From Acetobacteraceae bacterium (GTDB lineage: Bacteria; Pseudomonadota; Alphaproteobacteria; Acetobacterales; Acetobacteraceae): a stretch of 64,000 nt of DNA. Below, in pieces: positions 4,033 to 62,871 of the stretch. Made by a program: the position numbers and the translations under genes. The stretch spans positions 3,145,044 to 3,209,043 of the forward strand of contig OZ240673.1 in the NCBI GenBank assembly GCA_965198755.1. The letters are read 5' to 3'. The notes beneath the pieces are model-generated. The model was not told the DNA's origin and ran no database searches. It worked only from the letters and a program-made list of their open reading frames with translations. The stretch's first letter is position 1, and each line of letters opens with the position of its first letter.

Positions 4033-4166
4033 AAAGCAAGCAGTTCTTTTTTGAAAAAAAGAACCAAAAAACTTTTGTTCCCTGGGTACCCGTCTGTGGA
4101 ACGGTCCGCGACAGCCGTGATAAAAGTTTTTTGCTTCTTTTTTTCCAAAAAAGAAGCGCTTCCTTG
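4033..4166 (-). repeat. AT-rich bipartite palindromic element, copy E1
   Basis: GAACC arm left, CGCGACAG + GAAGC arm right. Confidence 0.95.
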
Positions 4167-5489
4167 AGCTTGCTTTCCAACGTAGGCGGCACCCTCCAGA
4201 ACCTGGCCTACACCGGCGTCCAGGCCTGGCCGTTCTCCACCACCACTATCCGCATCGGCGTCACCGGCCTCTCGCGCGCCGGCAAGACCGCCTTCATCAC
4301 CTCGGTCGCCGCCAACCTGATGGCGCGCCGCTGGGTGCTGGCACCTTCGGGCGCCGGCGACGTGCCGCGCTTCGACCAGGCACGCCACCTTGCCCGCCTC
4401 GCCGCCGACCCGCCCACCTGGCCGGAGCGCACGGACGCCGCCTCTCTGCTGGCGCTGACCACCAGCCTACCGCGCGGCCTGCTGCCGGCCCGCCACGTGC
4501 GTCTGGAGTTCCTCGACTATCCGGGCGAGTGGCTGATCGACCTGCCGATGCTGCGCCAGACCTACGCCGAGTGGTCGGACGCCACGCTGCGCCGGCTGGA
4601 ATCCGCGTCCGTGGCGCCGGTGGCCGCCCCGTTCCTCGCCTTCATCGGCGGCATCTCCGCCCGCGCGGCCGCCGACGAGGCGCTGGCCCATGCCGGCACC
4701 CGTCTGTATCGCGAGGTGCTGGGCAAGCTGCGTGACAAAGGCCTCGCCTTTCTGCAGCCCGGCCGTCACGTGATGCCGGCGCCCGGCCCGGAAGCGCCGT
4801 GGATGAGCTTCTTCCCGCTACGCTCGCAGGGAGGGCTGGCGTCACTGCTGACTGACCGCTACGCCGCCTACCTCGGCGCGGTGCGGCGCGACCTCGCCTC
4901 GCCGCTGTTCGCCAACGTGGACCGCCTGGTGATCCTGGCCGACGTGCTGAGCGCGCTGCACGCCGGACGCGACGCGTTCGCCGACATGCGGGCGGCACTC
5001 TCGGCCGCAGCCGGGTCGCTGCGCTGGCAGTTCGACTGGTGGGAGGCGCTGGGCGCGCTGACCGAGCTGCGCCTGCCGCCGCGCATCATCAACCGCGTGG
5101 CGTTTGCCGCCACCAAGTCGGACCACGTGGCCGAACGCCAGCGCGGCAACCTCGCCGCGCTTATGCGCTCACTGGCGCAGGTGCCGGCCACCGGGGTGCG
5201 CAGCACCCACGCCGCCATCGCCTCGGTCCGCTGCACGGAGGATTTCGTCTGGACGCTGGACGGCCGGCCGGTCTCCGCCGTGCGCGGCCGCGTGCTGGGC
5301 CAGCAGGTGATGACGCGCTCCTACCCCGGCGAGGTGCCGGACCAGCCGCCCGGCGACGACTTCTGGGAGCACCCGTTCCTGGCCCTGCCGCAGTTCGAGC
5401 CGATGCGCCTGCCGGACGGCGGCCGTCTCGGCGTGCCCAACGTCGGGCTGGACGCGTTGCTGGCGTTCCTGCTGGAGGATTTGACGTGA
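4164..5489 (+). CDS. ycjX: YcjX family P-loop protein (DUF463)
   Basis: IRIGVTGLSRAGKT Walker A, LDYPGEWLIDLP, FAATKSDHV; start uncertain (TTG 4164/4170 at the edge of E1). Confidence 0.9.
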   Translation: MSLLSNVGGTLQNLAYTGVQAWPFSTTTIRIGVTGLSRAGKTAFITSVAANLMARRWVLAPSGAGDVPRFDQARHLARLAADPPTWPERTDAASLLALTTSLPRGLLPARHVRLEFLDYPGEWLIDLPMLRQTYAEWSDATLRRLESASVAPVAAPFLAFIGGISARAAADEALAHAGTRLYREVLGKLRDKGLAFLQPGRHVMPAPGPEAPWMSFFPLRSQGGLASLLTDRYAAYLGAVRRDLASPLFANVDRLVILADVLSALHAGRDAFADMRAALSAAAGSLRWQFDWWEALGALTELRLPPRIINRVAFAATKSDHVAERQRGNLAALMRSLAQVPATGVRSTHAAIASVRCTEDFVWTLDGRPVSAVRGRVLGQQVMTRSYPGEVPDQPPGDDFWEHPFLALPQFEPMRLPDGGRLGVPNVGLDALLAFLLEDLT

Positions 5490-6547
5490 GCGACACCCGC
5501 CCCGGCGAGCCCCGGCCCCGGCCGCGCATCGAGACGGAGGCGCTGCCTCGTGCTGATGATGTTGCCGGCGCGCGCGGCCGGGGCGCAGCCCGTCCGGAGG
5601 AGCGCCAGACATCGCCCCGTCCGCATATGGACGAGCTTTCCGCGACTGCCGTGCCCGGGGAGGGCCGAGACGTCTCCGAGACCCTGCCGCGTGAGCGCCC
5701 GCCGCGTCCCCGCATCGAGACGGAGGACCTGCCCGCCTCCCGCCTGGAATCCGCGCTGCCGGTCATCGAGCTGGCCGTTCCGACGCGTCGGCAATGGGGC
5801 ATGCCGGCGCTGGTGTTCGGCGGCGCGTCCGTGCTGGTGCTGGGTGCGGCCGGGCTGCAGACGTTCCAGCTGGTGGCCGAGACGTTCGCGCGGTCCGGCT
5901 TTCTGGGCGGCGCGGCAGCGGGCGTAGCCGGCGTGGGCTTCGGCATGATCGGGCTGGGGTTCTGGCGCGAGTGGGCGGCGCTGTCCGCCCTGCGCGGCGT
6001 GGACCGGCTGCGCGCAGCGCTGTCCGGTCAGGACGCGGTGGCGCGGGCGCGCGCCGCGCGGGAGTGGCTGCGCGAGCTGCCCGAAGGACCCGCGCTGCTG
6101 CCCGCGGTGAACGCGGTCAACGACCCGGACGCCATCCTCGCACTGCTGCGCGCCGGGCCGGTGGCCAGCCTGCGCGGCCAGGCCGACGCGCTGGGACGCG
6201 CCGCGGCGTTGCAGTCCGTGGCGGGCATCGCGGCGATGCCGTCGCCGGGGCTGGCCGCGTTGTTCGTGGCGTGGCGCGGGTTGCGCCTGGTACGGCAGGT
6301 GGCCCAGCTGCACGGGTTGCGTCCCGGCGCGCTCGCCACGCTGGGGCTGCTGCGTAGGACGGCGTTGTCCGCTGGTGCTGTGGCTGGTGTGGAGGTGGCG
6401 ACGAACACCGCGGCGCACGCGCTGCTATCCAGCCCGTTGCTGACGCACGTGGCGGGCGAGATGGCAGGCGCGGGGGTGGCGGCGCGGCGGATGCTGGTGC
6501 TGGCCCGGGCGGCGAGCGTTGCGTGCTCGCCGGTGCCGCCGGAGTAA
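5486..6547 (+). CDS. ycjF: YcjF family membrane protein (DUF697)
   Basis: GTGA overlap with ycjX; two TM segments; GEMAGAGVAARRMLVL C-terminus; Pro/Arg-rich N-terminus with PRPRIETE twice. Confidence 0.85.
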   Translation: MSDTRPGEPRPRPRIETEALPRADDVAGARGRGAARPEERQTSPRPHMDELSATAVPGEGRDVSETLPRERPPRPRIETEDLPASRLESALPVIELAVPTRRQWGMPALVFGGASVLVLGAAGLQTFQLVAETFARSGFLGGAAAGVAGVGFGMIGLGFWREWAALSALRGVDRLRAALSGQDAVARARAAREWLRELPEGPALLPAVNAVNDPDAILALLRAGPVASLRGQADALGRAAALQSVAGIAAMPSPGLAALFVAWRGLRLVRQVAQLHGLRPGALATLGLLRRTALSAGAVAGVEVATNTAAHALLSSPLLTHVAGEMAGAGVAARRMLVLARAASVACSPVPPE

Positions 6548-6682
6548 GGCAAGGCAAGCGCTTCTTTTTTGAAAAAAAGAAGCAAAAAACTTTTGTCTCC
6601 GCTGTCGCGTGCTCGCCGGACAGGTCGCCGACAGGGAGCAAAAGTTTTTTGTTCTTTTTTTCAAAAAAGAACTGCTTCCTTC
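6548..6682 (+). repeat. Palindromic element E2, filling the gap between the convergent ycjF and aceA stops
   Basis: GAAGC arm + CTGTCGCG left, GAAC arm right; abuts both stop codons. Confidence 0.95.
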
Positions 6683-8344
6683 CTACCCGAACTGGTTCAT
6701 CGTGTTGTGCGCCCCGCCCGCCTTCAGCGCCGCCTCACCAGCAAAATACTCCTTGTGGTCGTCGCCCACGTCGGAGCCGGCCATGTTCTGGTGCTTCACG
6801 CAGGCGATGCCCTGGCGCAGTTCCTGACGCTGCACGCCCAGCACGTAACCCAGCATGCCCTGGTCGCCGAAATACGTCTTCGACAGGTTGTCCGCCGACA
6901 GCGCGGCCGTGTGGTAGGTCGGCAGCGTGATCAGATGGTGGAAGATGCCGGCGCGCTTTGCCGCGTCCGCCTGGAAGGTGCGGATGCGCTCGTCGGCTTC
7001 CTTGGCCAGCGCGGTCTCGTCGTAGTCCACGCTCATCAGCTTGGCACGATCGTAGGCGGAGACGTCGTGACCCTCGCCCTTCCACGCGTCGTAGACCTGC
7101 TGGCGGAAGTTCAGCGTCCAGTTGAAGCTGGGCGAGTTGTTGTAGGCGAGCTTGGCGTTCGGGATCACCGCGCGGATGCGGTCCATCATGCCGGCGATCT
7201 GGCTCACCTGCGGCTTTTCCGTCTCGATCCACAGCAGGTCGGCGCCGTTCTGCAGCGAGGTGATGCTGTCGAGCACGCAGCGGTCCTCGCCGGTGCCGGC
7301 GCGGAACTGGAACAGGTTGCTGGGCAGGCGTTTCGGCCGCAGCATCTTTCCGTTGCGGTTGATGATGACGTCGCCGTTGCGGGCGTCACCGGGGGCAACC
7401 TCTTCGCAATCGAGGAAGCTGTTGTATTGGTCACCCAGGTCACCGGGCGTGTGGCTGACGGCGATCTGCTTGGTGAGGCCGGCGCCGAGCGAGTCCGTGC
7501 GGGTGACGATGATGCCGTCGTCCACGCCGAGCTCGAGGAAGGCGTAGCGGCAGGCGCGCACCTTGGCGATGAAGTCCTCGTGCGGCACGGTGACCTTGCC
7601 GTCCTGGTGGCCGCACTGCTTCTCGTCGGACACCTGGTTCTCGATCTGCAGCGCGCAGGCGCCGGCTTCGATCATCTTCTTGGCCAGCAGATAGGTGGCC
7701 TCCGCGTTGCCGAAGCCGGCGTCGATGTCGGCGATGATCGGCACCACGTGGGTCTCGTAATTGTCCACGCGGGCCATCAGCTCGGCCTCACGCGCGGCGT
7801 CGCCGGACTTGCGGGCGGCGTCGATCTCGCGGAACATGCCGCCCAGCTCGCGCGCGTCGGCCTGGCGCAGGAAGGTGTAGATCTCCTCGATCAGCTTGGG
7901 CACGGTGGTCTTCTCGTGCATCGACTGGTCAGGCAGCGGGCCGAAATCGCTGCGCAGGGCGGCGACCATCCAGCCGGAGAGGTAGATGTAACGGCGCTTG
8001 GTGGTGCCGAAATGCTTCTTCACCGCGATCATCTGCTGCTGGGCGATGAAGCCGTGCCAGGCGCCGAGCGACTGGGTGTAGAGCGAGGAGTCCGCGTCGT
8101 AGGCCGCCATGTCGGCGCGCATGATGGCGGCCGTGTAGCGGGCAACGTCCAGTCCGGTCTGGAAGCGGTTCTGCAGGCGCATGCGCGCCACGGACTCAGG
8201 GTTGATACCGTTCCAGTTCGACCGCGCCTCGATCAGGTCGGCCGCCTGCGCCTGGTGCTCCTGATAGGCGGACGGACGGCCGCTGGCGGCGGACAACGAA
8301 CCGGTCGAACCTTCGGGGGCAAACAGGGGGACTGGCTTGTTCAT
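6683..8344 (-). CDS. aceA: Isocitrate lyase (long form)
   Basis: IENQVSDEKQCGHQDGK catalytic motif, DIDAGFGN, YNNSPSFNW; ATG 8344 preferred. Confidence 0.97.
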   Translation of the reverse strand: MNKPVPLFAPEGSTGSLSAASGRPSAYQEHQAQAADLIEARSNWNGINPESVARMRLQNRFQTGLDVARYTAAIMRADMAAYDADSSLYTQSLGAWHGFIAQQQMIAVKKHFGTTKRRYIYLSGWMVAALRSDFGPLPDQSMHEKTTVPKLIEEIYTFLRQADARELGGMFREIDAARKSGDAAREAELMARVDNYETHVVPIIADIDAGFGNAEATYLLAKKMIEAGACALQIENQVSDEKQCGHQDGKVTVPHEDFIAKVRACRYAFLELGVDDGIIVTRTDSLGAGLTKQIAVSHTPGDLGDQYNSFLDCEEVAPGDARNGDVIINRNGKMLRPKRLPSNLFQFRAGTGEDRCVLDSITSLQNGADLLWIETEKPQVSQIAGMMDRIRAVIPNAKLAYNNSPSFNWTLNFRQQVYDAWKGEGHDVSAYDRAKLMSVDYDETALAKEADERIRTFQADAAKRAGIFHHLITLPTYHTAALSADNLSKTYFGDQGMLGYVLGVQRQELRQGIACVKHQNMAGSDVGDDHKEYFAGEAALKAGGAHNTMNQFG

Positions 8345-8488: not shown

Positions 8489-8665
8489 CCCGAGCCAGTT
8501 TGAGACGCACGACTCAGTCGGCACTGGTAGCGTTCGCGTAAAGGAGGCAGCCTGCAAAGTTACCGGAGGTATAATCAGGCGGGTGGGGCGAGAGCCGCGT
8601 CAGATAGACTCGGGGATACTTGGGACGTACATACCGACAGGCCGCGGGGGCCGACCTTAGTGAAG

Positions 8666-8800
8666 AAAGCAAGGCCTTCTTTTTTGGAAAAAAAGAAGCA
8701 AAAAACTTTTGGTCTGGCTGTCGCGGAGTTTCCGGCAGCGCGCGCCAAGGGAATAAAAGTTTTTTGGTTCTTTTTTTCAAAAAAGAACCGCTTGCCTTGC
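8666..8800 (+). repeat. Palindromic element E3
   Basis: Full copy, CTGTCGCGGAGTTTCC spacer type. Confidence 0.95.
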
Positions 8801-8834: not shown

Positions 8835-10232
8835 ATGGCACGGCCACTCATCGGGCGCACGGTTCGCAGGCTGCGGACCGAGCAGAACCTCTCGCAGCAG
8901 GCGCTCGCCGCCAAGCTGGGCATCTCGCCCAGCTACCTGAACCTCATCGAGCACGACCAGCGCAACGTCACCGCCAGCCTGGTCATCAAGCTGGCCGAGA
9001 TGCTGCGGGTGGACCTTGCGGCCCTGTCCGGCGCGCAGGAGCGCGAGCTCGAGTTTGGCCTGCGCGAGGTGTTCTCCGACCCGCTTCTCGGCACCGAAGC
9101 CATCCCGGACGCCGAGCTGGAAGGCGTGGCCAGCAACCCCAACGCGGCGCGCGCCGTGCTCGCCCTCTACCGTGCCTGGCGGGTGGCGCGCGAGGACGCC
9201 TCCGGCCTGGCTCTGCCCTCCGGCCGGCGCATCCTGCTGCCCAACGAGGAGGCGCGCGACGTCTTCCACGAACGCGGCAACTATTTCGCCGAACTGGAAT
9301 CCGCGGCCGAAGGCATCGCCAACCAGCTGAACGTGACGCCGGCGGAGACCAACCACGCCATCGCCGAACGCCTGCGCCGCCTGCACCAGGTGAGCGTGCG
9401 CGTCAGCCCAATGGAAGACGCGCTGCGCCGCTACGAGCCGGAAACCCGCACGCTCACGCTGTCAGAACAATTACCGCGCGAGAGCCGCGGCTTCCACATG
9501 GCGTTCCAGATCATCCTGCTGGAAGCACGCGACATGGTCGAAGCGCTGCTCACCCGCATCGCACCCAGCTCGCCGGAAGCCGCCAGCCTGATCCGCATCG
9601 GGTTGCTGAACTACGCGGCCGCCGCGCTGCTGATGCCGTACACCGCGTTCCTCGACTCATCGCGTCTGCTGCGGCACGACGTGGACGCGCTCGCCGCCCG
9701 TTTCTGCGTCAGTTTCGAACAGGCCTGCCACCGCCTCAGTACTTTGCAGAAATCCGGCGCGCGCGGCATCCCGTTCTTCTTCCTGCGCGTGGACCCGGCC
9801 GGCAACGTCAGCAAACGTTTCTCCGCCGGCGGCTTTCCGTTCGCGCGCTACGGCGGCAGCTGCCCGCGCTGGGTGGTGCACGCGGCGTTCGCGACACCCG
9901 GCACGCTGCGCGTGCAGGTCGCACAACTGACGGATGGTGCCACGTTCCTCTGCTTCGCCCGTTGCATCGAAGGACCGGCTGCCGCCTGGGGCGAGCCGCC
10001 GCCCACGCACGTGATCGCCATGGGCTGCGACGTGGCGCATGCTGGCGAGGTGGTCTACGGCGACGGGCTGGCACTGGAACAGGCGGCGGTGGGAATCGGG
10101 CTCTCGTGCCGCCTGTGCGACCGGCAGAACTGCCGCAGCCGGGCGTTTCCGCCGCTGGAACATCGGTTGGCACTGGATCCGAACTTGGAGAGTGATAGTC
10201 CTTATCGGTTCGAGCCGGTGGGACGGAAGTAA
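8835..10232 (+). CDS. ramB: Short-chain fatty acyl-CoA regulator (ScfR/RamB family; XRE HTH + IrrE-like + DUF2083)
   Basis: N-terminal HTH (ISPSYLNLIEHDQR), VSFEQACHRLSTLQ, RVDPAGNVSKRFS, CRLCDR; divergent from aceA. Confidence 0.85.
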   Translation: MARPLIGRTVRRLRTEQNLSQQALAAKLGISPSYLNLIEHDQRNVTASLVIKLAEMLRVDLAALSGAQERELEFGLREVFSDPLLGTEAIPDAELEGVASNPNAARAVLALYRAWRVAREDASGLALPSGRRILLPNEEARDVFHERGNYFAELESAAEGIANQLNVTPAETNHAIAERLRRLHQVSVRVSPMEDALRRYEPETRTLTLSEQLPRESRGFHMAFQIILLEARDMVEALLTRIAPSSPEAASLIRIGLLNYAAAALLMPYTAFLDSSRLLRHDVDALAARFCVSFEQACHRLSTLQKSGARGIPFFFLRVDPAGNVSKRFSAGGFPFARYGGSCPRWVVHAAFATPGTLRVQVAQLTDGATFLCFARCIEGPAAAWGEPPPTHVIAMGCDVAHAGEVVYGDGLALEQAAVGIGLSCRLCDRQNCRSRAFPPLEHRLALDPNLESDSPYRFEPVGRK

Positions 10233-10361
10233 GCAAGGCCTTCTTTTCTGAAGAAAAGAAGCAAAAGACTTTTGGTCCTGCTGTCGCGAAGTTTCTGCAA
10301 CGCGCGCTTAAGGGAACAAAAGTTTTTTGGTTCTTTTTTTCAAAAAAGAACCGCTTGCCTT
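10231..10361 (+). repeat. Palindromic element E4
   Basis: Overlaps the regulator's TAA; full copy. Confidence 0.95.
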
Positions 10362-10389
10362 TACTATCACTGGTCGAGATTTCGGGCGA

Positions 10390-10740
10390 TTAATCGATCC
10401 CCGCCAGCACCGCCAACTTCCCGCGCACCTCTGCAAGCACCACCGCCGGCACCGCGCCACCCGCCCAGCTCACCGGCCGCGCCATCGTGTCCACGCTGCG
10501 CACGTGGCTCGTCAGCACCTCGCCGGCCACCGCCAGCCCTGACGGCAACACCACGCTCGTCCCAAACGGACGCACGCGCGACGCGATCGGGCAGACGATC
10601 GCCAACCGCGTCGCCTGCCAGAACGGCCGGGGAGAGATCACCAAAGCAGGCCGCCGGCCGCTCTGTTCACGGCCGATGCGCGGGTCGAAATCCAGCCAGA
10701 TCAGGTCGCCGGCGTTTGGCTCGTAGCCAGGGTCAGTCAA
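10390..10740 (-). CDS. mazF: MazF/PemK family mRNA interferase toxin
   Basis: GDLIWLDFDP, GREQSGRRPALVISP, CPIAS; TTG start overlaps the antitoxin stop. Confidence 0.9.
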   Translation of the reverse strand: MTDPGYEPNAGDLIWLDFDPRIGREQSGRRPALVISPRPFWQATRLAIVCPIASRVRPFGTSVVLPSGLAVAGEVLTSHVRSVDTMARPVSWAGGAVPAVVLAEVRGKLAVLAGID

Positions 10741-10971
10741 CCGCTTCCCGGCCCTGGTCGTCACCCCAGTCGAACGCGTCCGACATGGCTGCCGGCGTCA
10801 GGCCAGCCAGCATCTCCGACAGCTCGGAGCGCACCGGCATGGAGATGACGATGTGGTCGCCCTCGGCCTGCATCTCCACGCGCGCGCCTTCGGTCAGGCG
10901 AAAACGCCCCGCGAGGTCCTTCGGGATGCGCAAGCCAAGGCTGTTGCCCAGCGTGTCAGGTGAACTTGCAT
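10733..10971 (-). pseudogene. mazE: MazE/AbrB antitoxin with a 1-nt deletion at codon 9
   Basis: ATG 10971 gives MQVHLTRW, then the homology (GNSLGLRIPKD...FDWGDDQGRE) continues in another frame; CCC at 10947-10949 where CCCC is needed. Confidence 0.85.
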
Positions 10972-11025: not shown

Positions 11026-11180
11026 AAGGCAAGGCAAGCGGTTCTTTTTTGAAAAAAAGAACCAAAAAACTTTTGGTCTCGTAGGGCGCGGTTTGTTGAA
11101 ACGTGTCGTTCAGCAGTCTGCGACAGCCGAGATAAAAGCTTTTTGCTTCTTTTTCTCGAAAAAGAAGCGCTTGCTTTGCC
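11026..11180 (-). repeat. Palindromic element E5
   Basis: GAACC arm left, CGTGTCGTTCAGC spacer, GAAGC arm right. Confidence 0.95.
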
Positions 11181-13504: not shown

Positions 13505-13553
13505 GAAGCAAGCAAGGCCTTCTTTTTTGAAAAAAAGAAGCAAAAAACTTTTG
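13505..13553 (+). repeat. Palindromic element half copy E6 (GAAGC arm only)
   Basis: gaagcaagcaaggccttcttttttgaaaaaaagaagcaaaaaacttttg. Confidence 0.85.
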
Positions 13554-13567
13554 ATTTCTGGGCTTGG

Positions 13568-13709: not shown

Positions 13710-13836
13710 AAGCAAGCAAGCGGTTCTTTTTTGAAAAGAGAACCAAAAACTTTGTTTCCTGGGTAGCCGCTGCCGGGGGTTGCGCGACAGCAGGGAAAGA
13801 GTTTTCGCCGCTATTTTCGGAAACGCATGCCTTGCC
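13710..13836 (-). repeat. Palindromic element E7 (right arm eroded)
   Basis: GAACC arm, CGCGACAG, degenerate right arm. Confidence 0.75.
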
Positions 13837-13947
13837 CTCTTCGCTAGGAACTGAGGAAATCGTATCCAGGTTACCTGGTGTCATCTCGCTCGCCGACCGG
13901 GACTGAACAGGCAACGCACAAGCCCTGCCAAGCCAAGGACGCCCACC

Positions 13948-14945: not shown

Positions 14946-16439
14946 ATGAACGACCTCGCCGGCGTCGCCCAGGCCTTTCAGGACAGCCTGCCCCGCGGTG
15001 CCGAGGTGATCGTCTCGCGCATCGACAGCCTGGACCGCATCGGCGTCCCCGTGGTCCAGGCCGTGCTGCTGGGCCCCGACAGCCCTGCGCTGTCCGGCTA
15101 CGGCTACGGCGTGACCGAGCTGGAGGCACGCGTCGGCGCACTCGGCGAGCTGTGCGAGGAAGCCCATGTCGGCGCCACCATCGCCGCCGCCCCGCAGACC
15201 CTCGCCAGCTATGCAGCCCTGGCCGCGCGCCTGGGCGAACACGCGGTGCTCGACCCGCTGACGCTGTGCCTGCCGGCCGGCTCGGCCTACACGCCCGACA
15301 TGCCGCTCTCCTGGGTCGCCGGCCAGCGCTGGCCGGACGCAGCACCGGTGATGGTGCCGGCCGAGTGGGTGGCGGCGCACCCCTACCAGCTCGCCGCGCC
15401 GGCGCGGCTGATCACGCCCATCACCAACGGCCTGGGCGCCGGCTTCGACCTGCCACACGCTTTGGCGCACGCCTTGATGGAGCTGCTGCAGCGCGACGGC
15501 AACAGCCTCACCTACCGCGCGCTGGACCAGGGCGTGGTGGTCGACCTGCCGCAAGGCGCGCTCGGCGACGTCGACGACCTGCTGGCTCGCCTGCACGCGC
15601 TCGGCATCCGCCCGGTCGTCAAGCTGGCCGACACCAGCTTCGGACTCTCCAACCTCTATGTCATGGGCGATGATGACGGCCCGGCCCACTTCACCCTGCA
15701 GCTCAGCGCCTGCGGCGAGGCGTCCCATCCGGACCGCGCCCGGGCCCTGCGCAAGGCGCTGCTGGAATACATCGGCTCGCGCTCCCGCAAAGCGGCGACG
15801 CACGGTCCGGTGGAGACGGCGCGGCGCGTGCTGCCGCCGGCCTACCTGGCCCGCCTGCTCGCCGTCCCGCCGGCCGCCGAAGAGCCGCGCGCGCTGCAGG
15901 CGATGGCCGAGTGGCTGGGGCTGGACGCGGCAGCCTTGCGCCAGCTGCTGGCCGGCCCGGTGCAGCGCCGCACGCGCGGCATCTCGTTTGCCGACCTGCC
16001 CGACGCACCGGCGGCCGACGTCGCCACCTCCTCCGCCCGGCTCGACTATCTGGCGACCCGGCTGGCGGAAGCCGGGCTCGGCATCGTCTGGGTGGATTGC
16101 TCGCCGGCAGACGGGCCGGTGCGCGTGGTGCGCGCCATCGTGCCGGGACTGGAGAGCGAAACCATGAGCTACCACCGCCTCGGCCGGCGCGGGGTCGCCA
16201 GGCTGCGCGCCCGCCGCGACCCGCTGCTGCTCGACGCACCTCGCGACGGCGCCCTGCGCGTGCGCCTGCGCCCCGAGGACGAGGCAGCCTGCGGCGGGCC
16301 AGCCTGGTTCGACGCGGCACTCGCAGCACGGCTGACCGATCCGCTCTACCCGCTGTATCGTGAATGCGGGCCGTTCGCCGCACAGCGGCTGCTGGCCGGA
16401 AGCCGGCTTCATCGGGCGGATGCTGAAGCTGCGTGCTAG
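14946..16439 (+). CDS. YcaO-like protein (paralogue 1)
   Basis: LDRIGVP, GYG..E..EE, PITNGLGAG, HALMELLQRD, HPDRARALRKALLE, IVPGLE. Confidence 0.85.
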   Translation: MNDLAGVAQAFQDSLPRGAEVIVSRIDSLDRIGVPVVQAVLLGPDSPALSGYGYGVTELEARVGALGELCEEAHVGATIAAAPQTLASYAALAARLGEHAVLDPLTLCLPAGSAYTPDMPLSWVAGQRWPDAAPVMVPAEWVAAHPYQLAAPARLITPITNGLGAGFDLPHALAHALMELLQRDGNSLTYRALDQGVVVDLPQGALGDVDDLLARLHALGIRPVVKLADTSFGLSNLYVMGDDDGPAHFTLQLSACGEASHPDRARALRKALLEYIGSRSRKAATHGPVETARRVLPPAYLARLLAVPPAAEEPRALQAMAEWLGLDAAALRQLLAGPVQRRTRGISFADLPDAPAADVATSSARLDYLATRLAEAGLGIVWVDCSPADGPVRVVRAIVPGLESETMSYHRLGRRGVARLRARRDPLLLDAPRDGALRVRLRPEDEAACGGPAWFDAALAARLTDPLYPLYRECGPFAAQRLLAGSRLHRADAEAAC

Positions 16440-16468: not shown

Positions 16469-16620
16469 GGCAAGGCAAGCAGTTCTTTTTTGAAAAAAAG
16501 AACCAAAAAACTTTTGTCTCTCTCGGGTGTGCCGTGGTGAGACGCCTTGTTTCAGCCGTCCGCGACAGCGCGCCCAAAAGCTTTTTGCTTCTTTTTCTCG
16601 AAAAAGAAGGCGCTTGCTTT
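16469..16620 (-). repeat. Palindromic element E8
   Basis: Full copy with TGTTTCAGCCGTCCGCGACAG spacer. Confidence 0.95.
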
Positions 16621-16678
16621 CTACTGAGGCGGCGGTCGCAATTGAGAGCGTCTTTCGACTTGCCCGCCCAGTGCACCC

Positions 16679-18445
16679 ATGTCGCGTGACGTTCTGAAGC
16701 GCCCGCCGGCGCACGGCCAGGATGGTGCGGACGGACATCGTCGGCATCGTTCAGCCCATCCGGGTGAGCGCGAACTGGCCGAGCGTGTGGGCTTGCGCCG
16801 GGCCGTGCTGCTTGCGCTGATGCTGGGGGTGGCCGCTTGCCTCGTCTGGCTGGGCGCCGCCGTGCTGGCCCCAGGCGGCTGGACCGCCCTGAAGCTGGCG
16901 CTGCTGCTGTGCCTGGCAGCAAACGCGCCGTGGCTGGGCCTGTCGGCGGCAACTGGGCTGATCGGCTTCTGCGTGCGCATCGGCGCGCGCGACTCCGCCT
17001 GCGCGGTGTTCCCGGCGCTGCGCCTGGTGCGGCCGGACCAGGCGGTCACGTTGCGGACCGCAATCGCCGTCTGCGTGCGCGACGAGGCGGTTGCACCCGT
17101 TTTCGCCAGGCTGGCGCAACTCGGCGCCGATATCGACCATGCCGGGCTGTCCGGCCGCTTCTCGCTGTGCGTGCTGTCCGACACCGCAAGCGACGCGCTG
17201 GCGGAGTCGGAGACCCGCGAAGCCGCTTGCCTGCGCGCTGCGTGCGCCACGCCCGTTCTGTACCGCCGGCGTGCGGCCAACACCGGCTTCAAGGCCGGCA
17301 ACGTGATGTCCTTCCTGGACGAGCACGCGGGCGCCTTCGACCTGCTGGTCTGCCTGGACGCCGACAGCGAGATGACCGCACCCGCCATCCTGCGCCTGGT
17401 GCGGGTGATGCAGGCCGACCCGCGTCTGGCCATCGTGCAGGCCACCTTCCACGGCCAGCCGGCCAGCGCCCTGTTCCCCCGCCTATTCCAGTTCGGCCAG
17501 TTGCAGGGCCTGCGCATCTGGGCGGTGGGGCAGGCCTGGTGGCAGGCCGATAGCGGCCCTTACTGGGGGCACAACGCCGTCGTCCGCGTGGCACCGTTCC
17601 GTGCGCATTGCCGGCTATCCCCGTTGCCGGACGGTGCGGCCATCATGTCGCACGACCACGTGGAGGCCGCGCTGCTGCAGGGTGCCGGCTGGCGCCTGCG
17701 CGTGCTGGCCTGCGACGAGGGCTCGTCCGAAGCCCAGCCGCCGACGCTGCCCGACTACCTCGTCCGCGACCGCCGCTGGGCCGCCGGCAACCTGCAGTAT
17801 CGCTTCCTGCTGCGCCGGCGCGAACTCGGCCGTCTGGGCCGGCTGCAGATGCTTCAGGCAATCCTGCACTATGCGCTGACGCCACTGTGGTTCGCGATGC
17901 TGCCGTTGGCGGCGTTAAACGCCGCCACTGGGGGCGCGGCCCAACTCCGCTGGGGGCGCCTGCTGACCCTGCTGGCGTTCGGCTGGCTGACGCTGCACGC
18001 GCCCAAGCTGCTCGGCATGCTGGAACTGCTGTTGCGCCCCGCGGTCGCCTCGCGTTTTGGCGGCCGGGCTTGCGTGTTGCGCCTGGCCGCGTCCGAGCTG
18101 GTGTTCGCCCAGCTGTTCGATCCCATCATCGCGCTGCACAAGACAGCCGGCGTGCTGCGCCTGGCCGCCGGAGCACCCGGCAGCTGGACCGGGCAGACCC
18201 GCGACGAGCACGCGATCGGCTGGTCGCGCGCTGCAGGGATGTTCTGGCCGCATACGTTGGCGGGCATCGCGCTCGCGGCGGTGTTCGCGGCCGCATCACC
18301 TGCGGCATTGCTGGTTTGTCTGCCGGCGGTGGCGGGATTGATGCTCGCCATACCGTTTGCGGTGTTTTCATCGAAGCAAAGCAAGGCTCTCTTTTTCGAA
18401 AAAAAGAAGCAAAAAACGTTTGGCCGCGCTGTCGCGGACGGCTGA
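16679..18445 (+). CDS. mdoH: Glucan biosynthesis glucosyltransferase MdoH/OpgH-type (GT2); C-terminus derived from element E9
   Basis: GFKAGN, LDADSEM, YWGHNA, SHDHVEA, RDRRWAAGNLQY. Confidence 0.88.
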   Translation: MSRDVLKRPPAHGQDGADGHRRHRSAHPGERELAERVGLRRAVLLALMLGVAACLVWLGAAVLAPGGWTALKLALLLCLAANAPWLGLSAATGLIGFCVRIGARDSACAVFPALRLVRPDQAVTLRTAIAVCVRDEAVAPVFARLAQLGADIDHAGLSGRFSLCVLSDTASDALAESETREAACLRAACATPVLYRRRAANTGFKAGNVMSFLDEHAGAFDLLVCLDADSEMTAPAILRLVRVMQADPRLAIVQATFHGQPASALFPRLFQFGQLQGLRIWAVGQAWWQADSGPYWGHNAVVRVAPFRAHCRLSPLPDGAAIMSHDHVEAALLQGAGWRLRVLACDEGSSEAQPPTLPDYLVRDRRWAAGNLQYRFLLRRRELGRLGRLQMLQAILHYALTPLWFAMLPLAALNAATGGAAQLRWGRLLTLLAFGWLTLHAPKLLGMLELLLRPAVASRFGGRACVLRLAASELVFAQLFDPIIALHKTAGVLRLAAGAPGSWTGQTRDEHAIGWSRAAGMFWPHTLAGIALAAVFAAASPAALLVCLPAVAGLMLAIPFAVFSSKQSKALFFEKKKQKTFGRAVADG

Positions 18446-18512
18446 GACAGCCCGCAACCCAGAGAACAAAAGTCTTTTGCTTCTTTTTTTTCAAAAAAGA
18501 AGGCCTTGCCTT
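18374..18512 (+). repeat. Palindromic element E9, overlapping the mdoH 3' end
   Basis: Two GAAGC-type arms; mdoH stop lies in the spacer. Confidence 0.95.
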
Positions 18513-18625
18513 ACTTTACTAGCGTTTCCGTGAGCGGCAGCCTCCCGGGTTTACACCGCGATGCCGAACCCCATGTGGCCCACACCCGGGCGGTCGGCGT
18601 CCGGGCGGGTTAGGGATGAAAACGC

Positions 18626-23281: not shown

Positions 23282-23393
23282 AACAAAAGAAACAATGCCA
23301 CGTTCACTCCAAAATCCGGCAATCCAGTCCGTCGACTTGCGAGTCATGCTGATGACCTCCGGGCCATCCGCCGGCTTCTCAAGTGACGCCCGT

Positions 23394-23498
23394 AAAGAAA
23401 GCTATTGGTGGCGCTATCGCGGAGTTTCCGGCAGCGCGCGCCCAAGAGAACAAAAGTTTTTTGGTTCTTTTTTTCAAAAAAGAACCGCTTGCTTCCTT
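23394..23498 (+). repeat. Palindromic element E11 (left arm eroded)
   Basis: CTATCGCGGAGTTTCC spacer + intact GAACC arm. Confidence 0.85.
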
Positions 23499-25824: not shown

Positions 25825-25854
25825 GGTTCGCCCGGCGGCCCGTGTTGACGAGTA

Positions 25855-26962: not shown

Positions 26963-26966
26963 TGCG

Positions 26967-27100: not shown

Positions 27101-27104
27101 CTTC

Positions 27105-43985: not shown

Positions 43986-44050
43986 GGCAAGCAAGGCCTT
44001 CTTTTTCGAGAAAAAGAAGCAAAAAGCTTTTGTCCTCGCTGTCGCAGACG
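43986..44050 (+). repeat. Palindromic element half copy E20
   Basis: GAAGC arm + CTGTCGCA, abuts the parB stop. Confidence 0.85.
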
Positions 44051-44149
44051 GTTGAACGAAGTGCTTTAACGCGGCACACAACGAATCCTGATTCTGTATT
44101 GAACGCCAAGTAGATTGTATGAACCATCGGCGATTGTGACTCGTGGCAG

Positions 44150-44308
44150 AAAGCAAGCAGTCCGTTTTTGAACAGAAGGACCAAAAAACTTTTGTTCCTC
44201 CGCGCTTGCAGCAGTCGAGTATCCCCGGGCAAAAGCGCGTGCTGAAAATGCGAAGAGAAGCAAAAGTTTTTTGCTTCTTTTTTTCAAAAAAGAAGGCCTT
44301 GCTTGCTT
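44150..44308 (-). repeat. Palindromic element E21
   Basis: Left arm GTCC/GGAC variant, right GAAGC-type arm. Confidence 0.85.
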
Positions 44309-48454: not shown

Positions 48455-48493
48455 GAGCGCTGCTTTTTTGAAAAAAAGCAAAAAACGTTTGCT
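48455..48493 (+). repeat. Palindromic element half copy E22 (eroded)
   Basis: agcgctgcttttttgaaaaaaagcaaaaaacgtttg. Confidence 0.7.
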
Positions 48494-52764: not shown

Positions 52765-52902
52765 GCAAGGAAGCAAGCGGTTCTTTTTTGAAAAAAAGAA
52801 CCAAAAAACTTTTGTTCCCTTGAGTACTCGCTGAAGGAAACTCCGCGACAGCCGGACCAAAAGTTTTTTGCTGCTTTTTTTCAAAAAAGCAGGCCTTGCT
52901 TT
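52765..52902 (-). repeat. Palindromic element E24
   Basis: Full copy; abuts the kup TAG. Confidence 0.95.
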
Positions 52903-52929
52903 CTGCCCCGAACGCGGCCCGCCCGCATC

Positions 52930-53663: not shown

Positions 53664-53700
53664 TCTGAGGTCCGGCAAAACCTGCAAACACCCGCTCTCA

Positions 53701-54871
53701 TACCAACCGCCCAATAGGATGACTCGCGATTGTACCCACGCGGCTGATTTTGTGATTCTCTGGTCTGGTCATCCGATTCGGGGGTCAGAAATGAGCAAGC
53801 CGGTGCCGGTCACGCGTCTAGACAGATCAGCTTTTGACCTGCGCCGTGAGGCGTCGCGCTGCAATGATGGAGCGGTCGTGCGGCGCTTATTGGCGATTGC
53901 GCTCGTGCTGGAAGGGCGGCCGCGGACCGAGGCCGCCGAGGCCTGCGGCATGGACCGGCAGACGCTGCGCGATTGGGTGCACCACTACAACGAGGAAGGC
54001 CTCGACGGCCTGGCCAACCGTCGCAGTCCAGGCCGTCCGGCGCAGTTGACGCCTGAGCAGCTCGCGGCGTTCAAGGCGCTGGTGGAGCAAGGTCCCGATC
54101 TGGCGCGGGACGGCGTTGTCCGTTGGCGATGCAGCGATCTGCAGGCGCGCCTGCAGTCGGACTTCGCTGTGCACTATCATGAACGCAGCGTCGGCAAGTT
54201 GCTGGCCAGGCTGGCGTTCCGCAAGCTGAGCGTACGGCCGTTCCATCCCGAGCAGGACCCGGCCGCCCAGGCGACACACAAAAAAACTTTGCCGACCTGA
54301 TCGCGGCCGCCCTGCCGCCCCATGCCGCCGGCAAACCGCTCGAGATCTGGTGGCAGGATGAAGCCCGCGTCGGCCAGCAGGGCACGCTGACCCGCGTGTG
54401 GGCGCCGCGCGGCAGCAGACCGGCTGCACCGCGCGATCGCCGCTACACCTGGGCCTACCTATTTGGCGCGGTGTGCCCGGCGCGCGGCGTGGGTGCGGGG
54501 ATCGTCATGCCTTCGGTCAACCTGGAAGCCATGAGCCAGCATCTTGCTGAAGTCAGCCGCCATGTTGCACCTGGCGCCCACTGCCTGATGCAGGTCGACG
54601 GCGCCGGCTGGCATCGGCCGTCCGAGCGCCTGATCGTGCCCTCAAACATCACGCTACTGACCTTGCCGCCCTACTCGCCGGAACTCAATCCGGTTGAGAA
54701 TGTCTGGCAATACCTCCGCAGTAATTGGCTCAGCCATCGCGTGTGGGACAGCTACGAAGAGATTGTCGACGCCTGCTGTGTCGCATGGAACGCATTGATG
54801 GCCATGCCAGAACGGCTAACCTCAATCGCCACCCGAGAATGGGCACAGGTCAGCGTTTAGGGCGGTTGGTA
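53701..54871 (+). mobile_element. IS630 family insertion sequence
   Basis: Terminal inverted repeats TACCAACCGCCC (53701) / GGGCGGTTGGTA (54860-54871), TA at both ends. Confidence 0.92.
53791..54860 (+). CDS. IS630 transposase as orfA (53791-54300) + orfB joined by a probable -1 frameshift
   Basis: HTH/winged helix in orfA; A7C at 54280-54287; -1 frame gives KNFADL...WWQDEAR...VDGAGWH...SPELNPVE (DDE). Confidence 0.9.
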
Positions 54872-54917
54872 TTACATCGCTTGTGTAATGCCAATAGGCC
54901 TGAAGGTTGACCGTTTC

Positions 54918-55054
54918 AAAGCAAGCAAGGCTTCTTTTTTGAAAAAAAGAAGCAAAAAACTTTTGACTCCGCTGTCGCGGACCTGTCCGGAGAGCGCGCG
55001 ACAGCGGAGTCAAAAGTTTTTTGGTCCTTTTTTTCAAAAAAGGACTGCTTGCTT
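54918..55054 (+). repeat. Palindromic element E26 with a perfect 26-bp internal inverted repeat
   Basis: 54954-54979 is the exact reverse complement of 54997-55022. Confidence 0.95.
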
Positions 55055-55084
55055 CTATCATAAAAGCATCGACGCCAACTGGTA

Positions 55085-55924: not shown

Positions 55925-56004
55925 TGGTCCCGGCCATCCTCATGTGCGACCAGGCAAAGTCCACACCGCATGCCCGCGCCGCAAGCCCCCTCATGCAGAA
56001 CCAA

Positions 56005-56071
56005 ACCGCGACAGCCGTCCCAAAAGCTTTTTGCTTCTTTTTCTCGAAAAAGAAGGCCTTGCTTGCTTGCC
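56005..56071 (-). repeat. Palindromic element half copy E27
   Basis: CGCGACAG + GAAGC-type arm. Confidence 0.85.
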
Positions 56072-57511: not shown

Positions 57512-57647
57512 GAAGTAAGAAAGGCGTTCTTTTTTGAAAAAAAGAACCAAAAAACTTTTATCACCTGGCGCGCGCGTTGCGGGAGACTCCGCGACAGCGC
57601 GGGACAAACGTTTTTTGCTTCTTTTTTTCACAAAAGAAGAATCTGCC
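57512..57647 (-). repeat. Palindromic element E29
   Basis: Full copy; abuts the MarR TAG. Confidence 0.9.
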
Positions 57648-57658
57648 GGGCCTCTCCG

Positions 57659-58383: not shown

Positions 58384-58433
58384 AAGGCAAGGCAAGCAGT
58401 TCTTTTTTGAAAAAAAGAACCAAAAAACTTTTG
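58384..58433 (-). repeat. Palindromic element half copy E30
   Basis: GAACC arm. Confidence 0.85.
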
Positions 58434-58656
58434 CTTTTTTAGGGCGCGCGCTGGTGCGGCTTGCGGTTTCGGCTTTCACCGACCGGCCGGCTCGACCGTC
58501 AGGAATGGGCCGCCCCACCCGCCCATCAGGTCAGTGGGCGTTCCTCAAGCCGTCATCCAAACGAACTTGGCGTCACCTGCCCGAAACCTGTTGGACCATA
58601 CCCGCAGCCCGAGACGCTAAGTCATTCAGGCCTGCGAGGATCTCGGCCGACGGAGA

Positions 58657-58795
58657 AAAGGCAAGGCCTGCTTCTTTAAAGATAAGCAGCAAAAAACTTT
58701 TGCTCCTGCTGTCGCGGACTCTCCCCCACCATGCTCTCCAAGAAACAAAAGTTTTTTGGTTCTCTTTTTCAAAAAAGAACCGCTTGCCTTGCTTT
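58657..58795 (+). repeat. Palindromic element E31
   Basis: GCAGC-variant arm + CTGTCGCGG + GAACC arm. Confidence 0.9.
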
Positions 58796-60313: not shown

Positions 60314-60469
60314 AAGGCAAGCAAGGCCTTCTTTTTCGAGAGAAAGAAGCAAAAAGCTTTTATTACGGCTGTCGCGGACAACTGAACGACGAGTCTCAAC
60401 CCGGCACACCCCACGGAGACAAAAGTTTTTTGGTTCTTTTTTTCAAAAAAGAACTGCTTGCTTGCTTCC
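60314..60469 (+). repeat. Palindromic element E32
   Basis: Full copy; abuts the kinase TAG. Confidence 0.95.
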
Positions 60470-61791: not shown

Positions 61792-62036
61792 AAGCAAGGC
61801 ATTCTTTTTCGAGAAAAAGAAGCAAAAAGCTTTTGTTGCGGCTGTCGCGGACGGCTGAAACGACACGTTTCACCCCGGCGTATCCGACGACAGCAGACGT
61901 TTTTTCTGGTGCCACTTGAGACGCCGGCGAACGGCCCGGACGTCACCAGCCCAACGCGCGAGTCGACCGACGGGTGTGCCGGGTTCTCGGCTGGACGGAG
62001 TATTGGTTCTTTTTCAAAAGAGAACCGCTTGCTTGC
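61791..62036 (+). repeat. Palindromic element E33 with an extended spacer
   Basis: GAAGC arm + CTGTCGCGGACGGCTGAAACGACACG; eroded GAACC arm at 61998-62036. Confidence 0.8.
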
Positions 62037-62073
62037 GCCTTGCCATCGCGACCGATCACGGCAAGTCTGGCCT

Positions 62074-62751
62074 ATGGTGTCCATCATCCTCGCTGCGGCC
62101 GCTTTCGCTGCCATCCACCTCGGCGTCTCCGGTACGTCGCTGCGCAACCGGATCGTCGCCGCGATTGGCCTGACCCCTTACATGGTGGTGTTCTCGGTGG
62201 CCTCGGTCGCTACGATCATTTGGCTGGTCGGCGCCTACAACAGCGCGCCATACGTGGCCACCTGGGGCCAGCTGCAGTGGTGGAAGCCGTTCGCCATCGC
62301 GCTGATGCTGCCGGCGTTCCTGCTGGTGGTGGTGGGGCTGACCACGCCAAACCTCACTTCCGTGGCGCAGGACAAGCTTGCTGCCGAGGAGCCGCGCGGC
62401 ATCGTGCGGATTACCCGGCATCCGTTCCTGATCGGCACTGCGCTGTGGGCGACGATCCACCTGATCGGCAACGGCGACGTGGCCTCGCTGCTGTTCTTCG
62501 CCTCGCTGCTGCTCGTGTGCCTGGCCGGCACCGTTTCGATCGATGCAAAGCGGGCGCGCGCGCTGGGTGAGGAGTGGCAGGGTTTTGCGCGGCGCACGTC
62601 CATCCTGCCGTTCGCTGCCATCGCCGCCGGCCGCAACGCGTGGCGCCCGGGTGAGCTCGGCTGGTGGCGGCCCGCCGCGGGCCTCGGCGCCTATGCGCTA
62701 ATGCTGGGCGGGCACGCGCACATCGTAGGCGTGTCTCCCTGGCCCGTGTGA
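62074..62751 (+). CDS. NnrU family membrane protein
   Basis: GIVRITRHPFL, WATIHLIGNG, SIDAKR, TSILPF. Confidence 0.88.
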   Translation: MVSIILAAAAFAAIHLGVSGTSLRNRIVAAIGLTPYMVVFSVASVATIIWLVGAYNSAPYVATWGQLQWWKPFAIALMLPAFLLVVVGLTTPNLTSVAQDKLAAEEPRGIVRITRHPFLIGTALWATIHLIGNGDVASLLFFASLLLVCLAGTVSIDAKRARALGEEWQGFARRTSILPFAAIAAGRNAWRPGELGWWRPAAGLGAYALMLGGHAHIVGVSPWPV

Positions 62752-62814
62752 AAGCTGTTCCGTTCGTGTCAGGAAAACGATCTTTTTGTCCGCCGCCAAG
62801 TCGTGCGGGCTAGT

Positions 62815-62871
62815 CCGCGATAGCCGGACCAAAAGCTTTTTGCTTCTTTTTCTCGAAAAAGAAGCGCTTTC
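62815..62871 (-). repeat. Palindromic element half copy E34
   Basis: CGCGATAG + GAAGC arm. Confidence 0.8.

Follow-up and report, generated by a model that had tools for sequence, protein, structure and literature searches.

In Escherichia coli, bacterial interspersed mosaic elements (BIMEs) are built from repetitive extragenic palindromic (REP) sequences of two types, Y and Z, and proposals for their role include mRNA stabilisation, attenuation and the binding of gyrase or integration host factor (IHF). The Correia elements of Neisseria (also called Neisseria miniature insertion sequences, NEMIS) and the enterobacterial repetitive intergenic consensus (ERIC) elements are often co-transcribed with their flanking genes, and their transcripts fold into long hairpins whose cleavage by RNase III alters mRNA stability; Correia elements also produce a TA duplication, and have an IHF site and ends that resemble promoters. 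Densities of roughly 0.1-0.35 per kb are typical of the REPs of E. coli and of Stenotrophomonas and of the Correia elements. The two known REP superfamilies are defined by a head tetranucleotide, GTAG or CGTC, and CGTC repeats have been reported missing from the Acetobacteraceae (PMC3733652). Here we describe a dense family of palindromic repeats in a 64,000-nucleotide stretch of an Acetobacteraceae bacterium (assembly GCA_965198755.1, contig OZ240673.1, positions 3,145,044 to 3,209,043; hereafter the window, in whose numbering positions are given). A sequence-only reading of this DNA had likened the repeat to BIMEs, to miniature inverted-repeat transposable elements (MITEs) and to REPINs, the REP doublets mobilised by REP-associated tyrosine transposases (RAYTs); this likeness of layout is borne out by the inverted hairpin doublets, by the finding that the copies are inserted DNA and by structural covariation. 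We consider the repeat very probably to be a non-autonomous palindromic insertion-element family of this MITE/BIME/REPIN-like kind.

Copies, arms and centres

The window has a GC content of 63-72% (in 2-kb steps); the repeat arms in it are AT-rich and the element centre is GC-rich. A 21-mer picked out in the sequence-only reading, TTCTTTTTTGAAAAAAAGAAG, matched 68 times in the window at up to 3 mismatches (≤3) and not once in shuffled sequence, and repeat finding returned families of 27, 20, 14 and 16 copies, all of them views of one unit. With an nhmmer profile made from 11 arms, and counting at E<1e-3, we found 55 arms of ~50 nt between 4032 and 62873, at ~35 loci; these group into 19 compact doublets (134-160 nt), ~8 elements that are split or composite and ~8 arms that stand alone or are eroded. 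Arms and centres together account for 5.4% of the window and for 26% of the non-coding DNA in it. The estimate of about 35 copies, one per 2 kb, and the description of a ~130-155 bp unit with two inverted arms around a GC-rich spacer are thus upheld, the spacer being a GC-rich stem-loop. That each arm forms hairpins held for one palindrome, which covaries, and not for a second one, which does not (see below); the two arm types, the abutment on stop codons, the terminator-like core and the rereading of the second palindrome as an A-tract and stem foot were absent from that earlier account.

In the sequencing-run contigs that hold the window, arm k-mers reach a depth ~300-500x that of unique DNA; the runs show a flat, DNA-like depth and the assembled contigs end at repeats. 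The family explains why short-read assemblies of these genomes shatter at nearly every intergenic region.

A full element consists of two AT-rich inverted arms that flank a GC-rich stem-loop. The outermost part of each arm is a purine-rich stretch, (R-R-A-A-G)n, of variable length (typically GCAAGGCAAG, ~12 nt); inward of it lies an AT-rich palindrome of 9-10 bp, here called H1 (TTCTTTTTT-GA-AAAAAAGAA), and the innermost part reads C-AAAAAA-C-TTTTG, followed by the GC-rich stem-loop and the mirrored arm. Arms are of two types: in X, H1 is closed by G..C (CRG-TTC...GAA-CC), and in Y by C..G (GCC-TTC...GAA-GC). Because most doublets hold one arm of each type (89 of 113 in the window and related loci), the element is asymmetric, and in this resembles E. 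coli BIMEs with their mosaic of Y and Z. The column composition of 383 arms gives AAG-[GC/CR]-[C/G] before H1 and CAAAAAAC after it, and neither a GTAG nor a CGTC tetranucleotide is present beside the hairpin. In their small non-coding size (134-160 nt) and their terminal inverted repeats (arms of ~45-55 nt) the elements are of the MITE kind.

Two subfamilies can be told apart. The short one (~136 nt) has the centre GGCTGTCGCGGAGTTTCC.GCA.CGCGCGCC; the long one (~150 nt) has a Y arm, termed Y2, with a CGAG loop and the change A41G, and a centre beginning GGCTGTCGCGGACGGCTGAAACGACACG. Since a given arm variant goes with a given centre variant, and since both are scattered across many loci, the copies descend from distinct source copies. 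The copies in the window are listed here (L104, L105 and L111 are loci of relatives, introduced below):

4031-4168: short-type doublet (X left, Y right), filling the gap from the stop codon at 4025 to a YcjX-like gene
6549-6684: short-type doublet (Y, X), filling the entire 135-nt gap between the convergent stops 6547 and 6683
8664-8800: short-type doublet (Y, X), upstream of a regulator gene at 8835
10228-10363: short-type doublet (Y3 variant, X), between convergent genes and overlapping the stop at 10232
11029-11179: long-type doublet (X, Y2), 7 nt from the stop of an M28 peptidase gene (11186, minus strand)
13508-13555, plus strand: solo Y arm, upstream of tRNA-Met
13712-13840: X arm with a decayed partner, beginning ~25 nt after tRNA-Met
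16470-16622: long-type doublet (X, Y2), 30 nt past the stop of the first YcaO gene
18376-18514: Y-Y doublet; a GT2 glycosyltransferase open reading frame (ORF) has its 3' end read from the left arm and its stop in the element centre
21586-21736: long-type doublet (Y2, X), in frame (~50 codons) in the class I S-adenosylmethionine (SAM) methyltransferase gene 20898-22214
23397-23496: centre and X arm, the Y arm replaced by other DNA, between the GFO gene and the next; the L111 genes overlap there
25859-25995: short-type doublet (X, Y), within a 312-nt insert with the 11-bp duplication TGAGGTTCGCC at 25822-25832 and 26145-26155
26964-27101: short-type doublet (Y3, X), filling the space from the AP_endonuc_2 stop to the GT4 start; ATGA overlap in L111
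29111-29206, plus strand: X arm and long-type centre, without Y arm
29330-29412, minus strand: centre and X arm, 34 nt from the stop of a HIT gene
29927-30077: long-type doublet (X, Y2)
33560-33640, plus strand: Y arm and start of a centre, outer half of a split element
33758-33891: short-type doublet (Y, X), between the halves of the split element 33560-33640 / 33963-34060
33963-34060, minus strand: long-type centre and X arm, abutting a stop at 34059; other outer half of the split element
35521-35567, plus strand: eroded arm relic (18 bits)
43987-44085, plus strand: Y2 arm and long-type centre, beginning 1 nt past the parB stop
44148-44307: X-Y doublet with a 58-nt centre, adjoining the holA stop
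48456-48493, plus strand: eroded solo arm, between the DUF3576 stop and the leuS start; orthologous relic in L104 and L105
49400-49459, minus strand: centre and Y arm (solo)
52768-52904: short-type doublet (X, Y), 4 nt past the K_trans stop; orthologous copy in L104
53517-53665: decayed long-type doublet, after the DUF3291 stop
54920-55057: short-type doublet (Y, X), the GC stem of its centre being perfect over 11 bp; whole-element RNA hairpin of -81 kcal/mol
56003-56066, minus strand: centre and Y2 arm, 7 nt from a stop codon
56851-56975: Y arm and decayed X arm, filling a divergent intergenic region; X half partly deleted in L104
57514-57651: short-type doublet (X, Y), filling the space from the MarR stop to the response-regulator start
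58388-58483, plus strand: X arm and long-type centre, without Y arm
58656-58792: short-type doublet (Y variant CTGC..GCAG, X)
60316-60466: long-type doublet (Y2, X), 3 nt past the histidine kinase stop
61792-62036: Y2 arm and long centre (61792-61882) and X-arm relic (62003-62036), with ~120 nt of other DNA in between
62810-62873, minus strand: centre and Y2 arm (solo), 14 nt before the purH start

Nested or split copies lie at 29111-29412, 33560-34060, 43987-44307, 58388-58792 and 61792-62036. We considered a longer common element behind the split copies and rejected it, as their interiors share only one 70-nt repeat. This second repeat of ~70 nt occurs, inverted and 80% identical, at 23313-23385 and 61913-61985, each time inside an arm-deficient element, and may be a further small element with the first as its insertion target.

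Insertion, placement at gene ends and age

Comparison with relatives shows that the copies are inserted DNA, and four sites can be seen both filled and empty when the window is set beside L111 and more distant protein homologs. In the methyltransferase gene, the ORF 20898-22214 stays open through the 150-nt copy and overlaps the next gene by 7 nt; most homologs, of 370-409 aa, are without exactly the element-encoded segment (...MLRVAGGQ[~50 residues]SGRILVGHAHN...), which is present in three close relatives, one of them 100% identical and two 87%. The closest homolog without the in-frame element, L111 protein P0133, has five extra residues, GGTAS, at the insertion point (3385-3400), and the DNA for these residues resembles the left end of the element; this stretch may be the footprint of an imprecise element loss.

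L111 has the same operon as the window (inositol-phosphate synthase ... YcaO ... GT4 ... PIG-L), with no repeat arm in its 13.9 kb, and its genes overlap at three junctions: by ATGA (4 nt) at YcaO/AP_endonuc and at AP_endonuc/GT4, and by ~10 nt at the GFO junction. All three junctions hold elements in the window and in the related locus L112. The 312-nt insert at YcaO/AP_endonuc is bounded by the 11-bp target duplication, and the element at AP_endonuc/GT4 has TC[C/A]TGA on both sides, as against TCATGA in the empty site, a possible 6-bp duplication. Long target duplications as a rule were nevertheless dropped, since flanking direct repeats over 134 elements were not enriched (4.93 nt vs 4.89 nt in controls), a measure to which duplications of 2-4 bp are invisible. 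The YcaO gene of this operon is one of two paralogs in the window (14946-16439 and 24331-25824), with DNA segments 70-87% identical; the second stands in the inositol-phosphate synthase/glycosyltransferase/PIG-L operon.

Relatives also differ in what fills a given gene end. In the convergent holA/parB gap, L104 has a decayed long-type copy and the window has that copy as well as a second element; L105 has a symmetric Y-Y copy there, and Rhodovastum has unrelated GC-rich palindromes. Past the K_trans stop, L105 has a different, GC-rich palindrome with similar GCAAG-type ends. GC-rich palindromic repeats stand at the same gene ends in relatives (L105 6240-6370, L106 14210-14390); the one in L105 is bounded by GGCAAGAA...TTCTTGCC, much like the purine-rich ends of the AT-rich family. 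The outer ends may be common to more than one repeat family, or may mark a preferred target.

Genes were called by a codon-usage score trained on the window and checked against Pfam and against the gene calls of near-identical loci; gene callers run ORFs into the repeats. Where an arm faces a stop codon (n=31), H1 lies within 18 nt of it in 13 cases and within 50 nt in 24, and, because the purine-rich end is ~12 nt long, the element itself ends 0-3 nt from the stop. In several places an element takes up precisely the whole intergenic region: 6548-6682, bounded by two convergent stops, and 26963-27092 and 57512-57658, each running from a stop to a start. By our own count about four in five transcription-unit ends of the window carry a copy, and whether an element reads XY or YX bears no relation to the direction of the gene upstream. 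Elements are absent from the 4-nt overlaps of the mnmE-parB block and from other tight operons in the window. Two ideas about this placement were dropped. A stop codon belonging to the element is contradicted by arms that face gene starts, mostly without stop codons, so that the stops belong to the genes; and for outward promoters in the arms, only two promoter-like sites were seen in 14 kb, no more than in shuffled sequence, and only one of the two uses H1 as its -35 box. For the GT2 glycosyltransferase, either the last ~23 codons (18376-18445) are element-encoded or the gene call is over-extended.

Several other features of the window were seen in passing. Two perfect parS sites (TGTTTCACGTGAAACA) lie 17 nt apart at 41741-41756 and 41774-41789, between mnmG and rsmG, within the origin-proximal set mnmE-mnmG-rsmG-parA-parB, a 5-kb block free of the repeat elements. 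A MazE/MazF (PemK-like) toxin-antitoxin pair at 10390-10933 has an element on either side (10228-10363 and 11029-11179). A tandem repeat with a 15-nt period (CGAACAGCGATAGGG, ~5 copies) occupies 2039-2137, upstream of or at the start of an ORF ending at 3678.

Relatives at graded distance were chosen through LeuS homologs, with these identities to the window:

L109: LeuS 99.3% identical, same species
L110: LeuS 97.7% identical, same species
L104: LeuS 92% identical
L105: LeuS 81% identical
L106, Rhodovastum atsumiense: LeuS 75% identical

Over ~24 kb every window element is present in L109 (98% nucleotide identity) and in L110 (90-95%), and among the full window copies no pair exceeds 90% identity (median 76%). 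Because strains share all copies and no pair is above 90%, the family is old and no longer moving in this lineage. Insertion polymorphism was seen between species and genera, and not among strains 2-10% diverged. The only strain-level structural polymorphism in the 24 kb is of another kind: an IS630-family insertion sequence at ~53700-54897, with helix-turn-helix domains, DDE_3 and an A7 slippery run near 54280, is absent from L109 and L110, which have 17 nt of other sequence instead.

Identity of the aligned DNA was as follows:

L109: arms 0.980, third codon positions 0.969, other aligned intergenic DNA 0.969
L110: arms 0.911, third codon positions 0.863, other aligned intergenic DNA 0.899
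L104: arms 0.917, third codon positions 0.725, other aligned intergenic DNA 0.803

Arm divergence thus reaches a plateau while silent sites go on diverging, and element centres diverge like other intergenic DNA. The plateau fits purifying selection, gene conversion among copies, or replacement. Arms number 0.6-0.8 per kb in the three genomes closest to the window and 0.3 per kb in L105, whereas L106 and L111 have none.

Beyond these relatives, a species-representative genome collection has over 103 stretches with an exact match to the 34-mer of the X arm, nearly all from Acetobacteraceae or Rhodospirillales metagenome-assembled genomes (MAGs), the named carriers being Roseomonas sp. GC11, Acidiphilium sp. 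PA and Gluconacetobacter takamatsuzukensis. Plasmids of Pseudoroseomonas cervicalis have full elements directly past stop codons, one of them between convergent stops, and a plasmid of Acidiphilium multivorum has one arm; matches in Bacteroides and Parabacteroides plasmids were set aside as short AT-rich chance matches. Across genera the arm is near-invariant and the centre is swapped for other GC stems (e.g. TTGGCGTCCCGC...GCGGGACGCCAA or TCGTTCAGG...CCTGAACGA); some of these copies lack the GCAAG ends.

The same 34-mer is found in 17 IMG/VR stretches, where full doublets lie directly after portal and major-head genes (L116 4567-4772 and 8751-8873; also L117, L124 and L126), with at least 6 doublets in one 31-kb contig; these contigs may be prophages or gene-transfer-agent-like clusters of Acetobacteraceae. 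Half an element is present in the record of a single-stranded DNA phage from a cattle-blood virome, Microviridae sp. MG945182.1 (L130 640-735; record 5845-5944): a GC-rich hairpin, then AAAAGTTTTTTGG (AAAAG-T6-GG), then an X-type H1, intergenic and in gene direction.

In Rfam only the tRNA passes the gathering score within the window, a permissive threshold adding sub-threshold matches to long miRNA-type hairpins; E. coli genomes hold nothing similar to the arms; and the literature that we searched, with literal sequences included, has no description of the family. The statement that it was not recognisable as a described family has therefore stood, and on this comparison of sequences the repeat is apparently an undescribed family of the MITE/REP/BIME kind, endemic to the Acetobacteraceae.

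Hairpin covariation, folding and a proposed role

Most variation in the palindrome H1 keeps its pairing. Over 383 arms, its pair 13-34 is GC in 204, CG in 161 and UA in 5; pair 15-32 is UA in 355, GC in 12 and CG in 11; pair 21-26 is UA in 334 and CG in 25; and pair 22-25 is UA in 335 and CG in 35, with few one-sided changes at these pairs. Among 97 distinct gap-free arms, 4 of the 10 H1 pairs are altered on both sides, and two-sided change cells number 71, as against 21.6 +/- 3.3 in shuffles (0 of 500 reach 71) and 2-6 in slid controls. The second palindrome, H2 (CAAAAAACTTTTG; CAAAA/TTTTG), is conserved, yet in the same 97 arms none of its pairs is changed on both sides; for want of covariation we dropped it as a local hairpin and reread it as an A-tract and the foot of the central stem. 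The compensation in H1 acts within the arm: the closing pair is complementary within arms in 223 of 224 cases and between arms in 39 of 224, on which ground arm-to-arm pairing at the closing pair was rejected as a selected structure. Structural covariation, proposed earlier as a check on the family, was accordingly found, and in H1 alone. We conclude that H1 matters while the arms are apart, either in single-stranded DNA or during transcription of the first arm.

Folded alone as RNA, H1 is weak (-3.9 kcal/mol, z = -1). The whole element folds as one long hairpin of -42 to -84 kcal/mol, at or below -50 (≤ -50) on both strands in 17 of 19 doublets; the z score, taken for one copy, is -11.7. For the core alone, bounded by the A-tract and the U-tract, folding energies are -30 to -51 kcal/mol (z = -3 to -9, copies of two other genera included); it reads A6-CUUUUG-[GC stem-loop]-CAAAAG-U6-GG-UUCU7. 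In these predicted folds the core has the layout of a bidirectional intrinsic terminator, with a GC stem-loop and a U-tract on both strands, downstream of genes.

We propose that the element is copied in trans by an enzyme encoded elsewhere, which would read H1 as a hairpin in single-stranded DNA in the style of REP/IS200; H1 is given this part because of the compensation within arms, its weakness as free RNA and the want of enrichment of flanking duplications. We put the case for such a hairpin-reading, trans-acting enzyme as evenly balanced. Once transcribed, the element would fold into one long hairpin with its terminator-like core, and would act as a 3'-end hairpin, as a leaky terminator and/or a block to 3' exonucleases; folding would also bring the upstream stop codon beside the downstream start codon, by which its tolerance inside operons could be explained. 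This RNA 3'-end role, resting on predicted folds, we advance tentatively. A REP-like role (3' exonuclease barrier, RNase III site or attenuator) fits better than that of a strong terminator. The combination as a whole, a MITE/BIME/REPIN-like element with mobilisation in trans and an RNA 3'-end hairpin role, is the explanation that we favour, with moderate confidence.

A number of points weigh against this proposal. Template-switch mutation can produce two-sided changes in a palindrome with no selection at work, and the covariation cells count sequences rather than events, ~5-6 independent double changes being evident. The arm-conservation figures are biased to copies that still align, and gene conversion among hundreds of copies could itself give arm conservation. 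Efficient termination is hard to square with a near-consensus copy inside an intact ORF, with three copies within an operon, one of them without room for a new promoter, and with a core whose stem foot is A-U rich, atypical of strong terminators; because copies lie inside an intact ORF and an operon, termination would be partial at most. The clear 11-bp duplication at one insert misfits a duplication-free mechanism. Nor was a mobilising enzyme found in the window and ~110 kb of syntenic loci: no Y1/HUH transposase is among the predicted proteins of the window scanned against Pfam, as the sequence-only reading had said of RAYT/HUH genes, and none is in the precomputed annotation of the ~110 kb. 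The only transposase gene of the window is the IS630-type DDE_3 gene at ~53.7-54.9 kb, and this insertion sequence was rejected as the parent element, its ends being unrelated to the arms.

The family might be a true REPIN-RAYT system, in which the doublet is the REPIN, kept by a single domesticated HUH/Y1 gene elsewhere, the arms forming a third REP class without the GTAG/CGTC head. The inverted hairpin doublets with a short spacer are as expected of REPINs, as are the covariation inside each arm's hairpin, expected of recognition in single-stranded DNA, the unenriched flanking duplications, the long vertical persistence with fixation within the species, and the very high copy number implied by a k-mer depth ~300-500x that of unique DNA. 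We nonetheless think it unlikely, as no conserved GTAG/CGTC tetranucleotide stands beside the hairpin, neither the window nor the syntenic loci (~110 kb) encode a Y1_Tnp protein, and one insert has its 11-bp duplication. The same arm 34-mer runs across genera, and known REPs differ between species. The reported absence of CGTC repeats from this bacterial family (PMC3733652) points the same way. With no such head on the arms and no RAYT in the window or the syntenic loci, membership in the REPIN/RAYT class is not supported.

About equally doubtful is an ordinary MITE, a deletion derivative of an insertion sequence with a DDE transposase, without function for the host, its position at gene ends reflecting tolerance. 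Its long inverted-repeat arms, with fixed ends and a centre that varies by lineage, its filled and empty sites between genera, the decay and splitting of its copies, the 11-bp duplication at one site with a possible 6-bp one at another, and the want of any window pair >90% identical would all suit such an origin. Against it are the missing general signal of duplication and the unrelated ends of the sole insertion sequence in the window, of the IS630 type. Moreover, tolerance alone leaves unexplained why the distance to stops is 0-3 nt and that to starts is free, why changes compensate within the arm, and why arms are ~91% identical at a distance where third codon positions are 72%.

More speculatively, and we think improbably, the repeat could be a self-spreading terminator or insulator cassette on which this bacterial family has come to depend. 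A conserved protein would recognise its near-invariant arm, either an enzyme of the HUH type, domesticated and belonging to a new REP class, or an RNA- or DNA-binding factor of the host; the spread of the cassette would have replaced ancestral 3' ends and split overlapping operon genes, phages including the microvirus having taken up the module.

Alternatively, the function might lie in the DNA: AT-rich arms at 3' ends would bind a nucleoid protein or gyrase and absorb transcription-driven supercoiling, as has been proposed for E. coli BIMEs (through gyrase and IHF) and for GapR in Caulobacter. In its favour, the 3' ends of genes in this 63-72% GC genome coincide with AT-rich islands, the arm and not the centre is conserved across genera, H1 is too weak for a stable RNA hairpin, and a function of this sort would not depend on orientation. 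A dimeric site does not, however, predict compensatory changes in both half-sites, and A6/U6 tracts around a GC stem are better explained by an RNA hairpin, which leaves us with little belief in this alternative.

Immobile native bidirectional terminators, alike through common selection and gene conversion, would agree with the terminator-like core, with the position after stop codons and after a tRNA gene, and with the lack of presence/absence differences between strains, but are largely refuted by the in-frame copy in a coding sequence whose distant homologs have none and by the copies in operon junctions where a relative has overlapping genes; nested and split elements, subfamilies with linked diagnostic changes in arm and centre, and copies in phage-like contigs and the microvirus record make them more improbable still, and we give this idea almost no weight.

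If the favoured explanation (an inserted, trans-mobilised element with a 3'-end hairpin role) holds, the family would be among the densest palindromic repeat families known in bacteria, at ~0.9 arms per kb here. A terminator-like copy-and-paste element at ~80% of transcription-unit ends makes the choice between selfish and domesticated REP-like repeats directly testable. Cultured carriers are at hand in Pseudoroseomonas cervicalis, Acidiphilium multivorum and Gluconacetobacter takamatsuzukensis, and the in-frame and operon-junction copies are natural experiments in the tolerance of insertions.

Comparison with described systems

The E. coli BIMEs share with this repeat two hairpin types inverted around a short linker, a position at extragenic 3' ends and operon junctions, and hundreds of copies; the repeat differs in having no similarity to E. 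coli sequence and no GTAG head, and in its AT-rich arms of ~45 nt and its GC stem-loop flanked by A6/T6. To the REPINs of the RAYTs in Pseudomonas and E. coli it is likened by the inverted hairpin doublet as the unit, the long single-strand hairpin, the vertical persistence and the want of obvious duplication, and is set apart from them by having no RAYT in the window or syntenic loci, no GTAG/CGTC, and an arm common to genera instead of species-specific.

Neisseria Correia (NEMIS) and enterobacterial ERIC elements are likewise MITEs of 100-160 bp with long inverted repeats, at a comparable or lower density. The TA duplication, IHF site and promoter-like ends of Correia elements were not detected here, however, and the arms of the present repeat have a covarying hairpin of their own. 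With the Rickettsia palindromic elements (RPE) it shares, in one case, a palindromic repeat translated in frame; such insertion is rare here (1 of ~35 loci), and the two have no sequence relationship.

Finally, bidirectional Rho-independent terminators have the same order of A-tract, GC stem-loop and T-tract and the same position between convergent genes and after a tRNA gene. They are unlike the repeat described here in that its stem, of 45-60 nt with an A-U rich foot, is set between two extra AT hairpins, and in that its copies are dispersed by copy-and-paste, also into an ORF and the interior of an operon.

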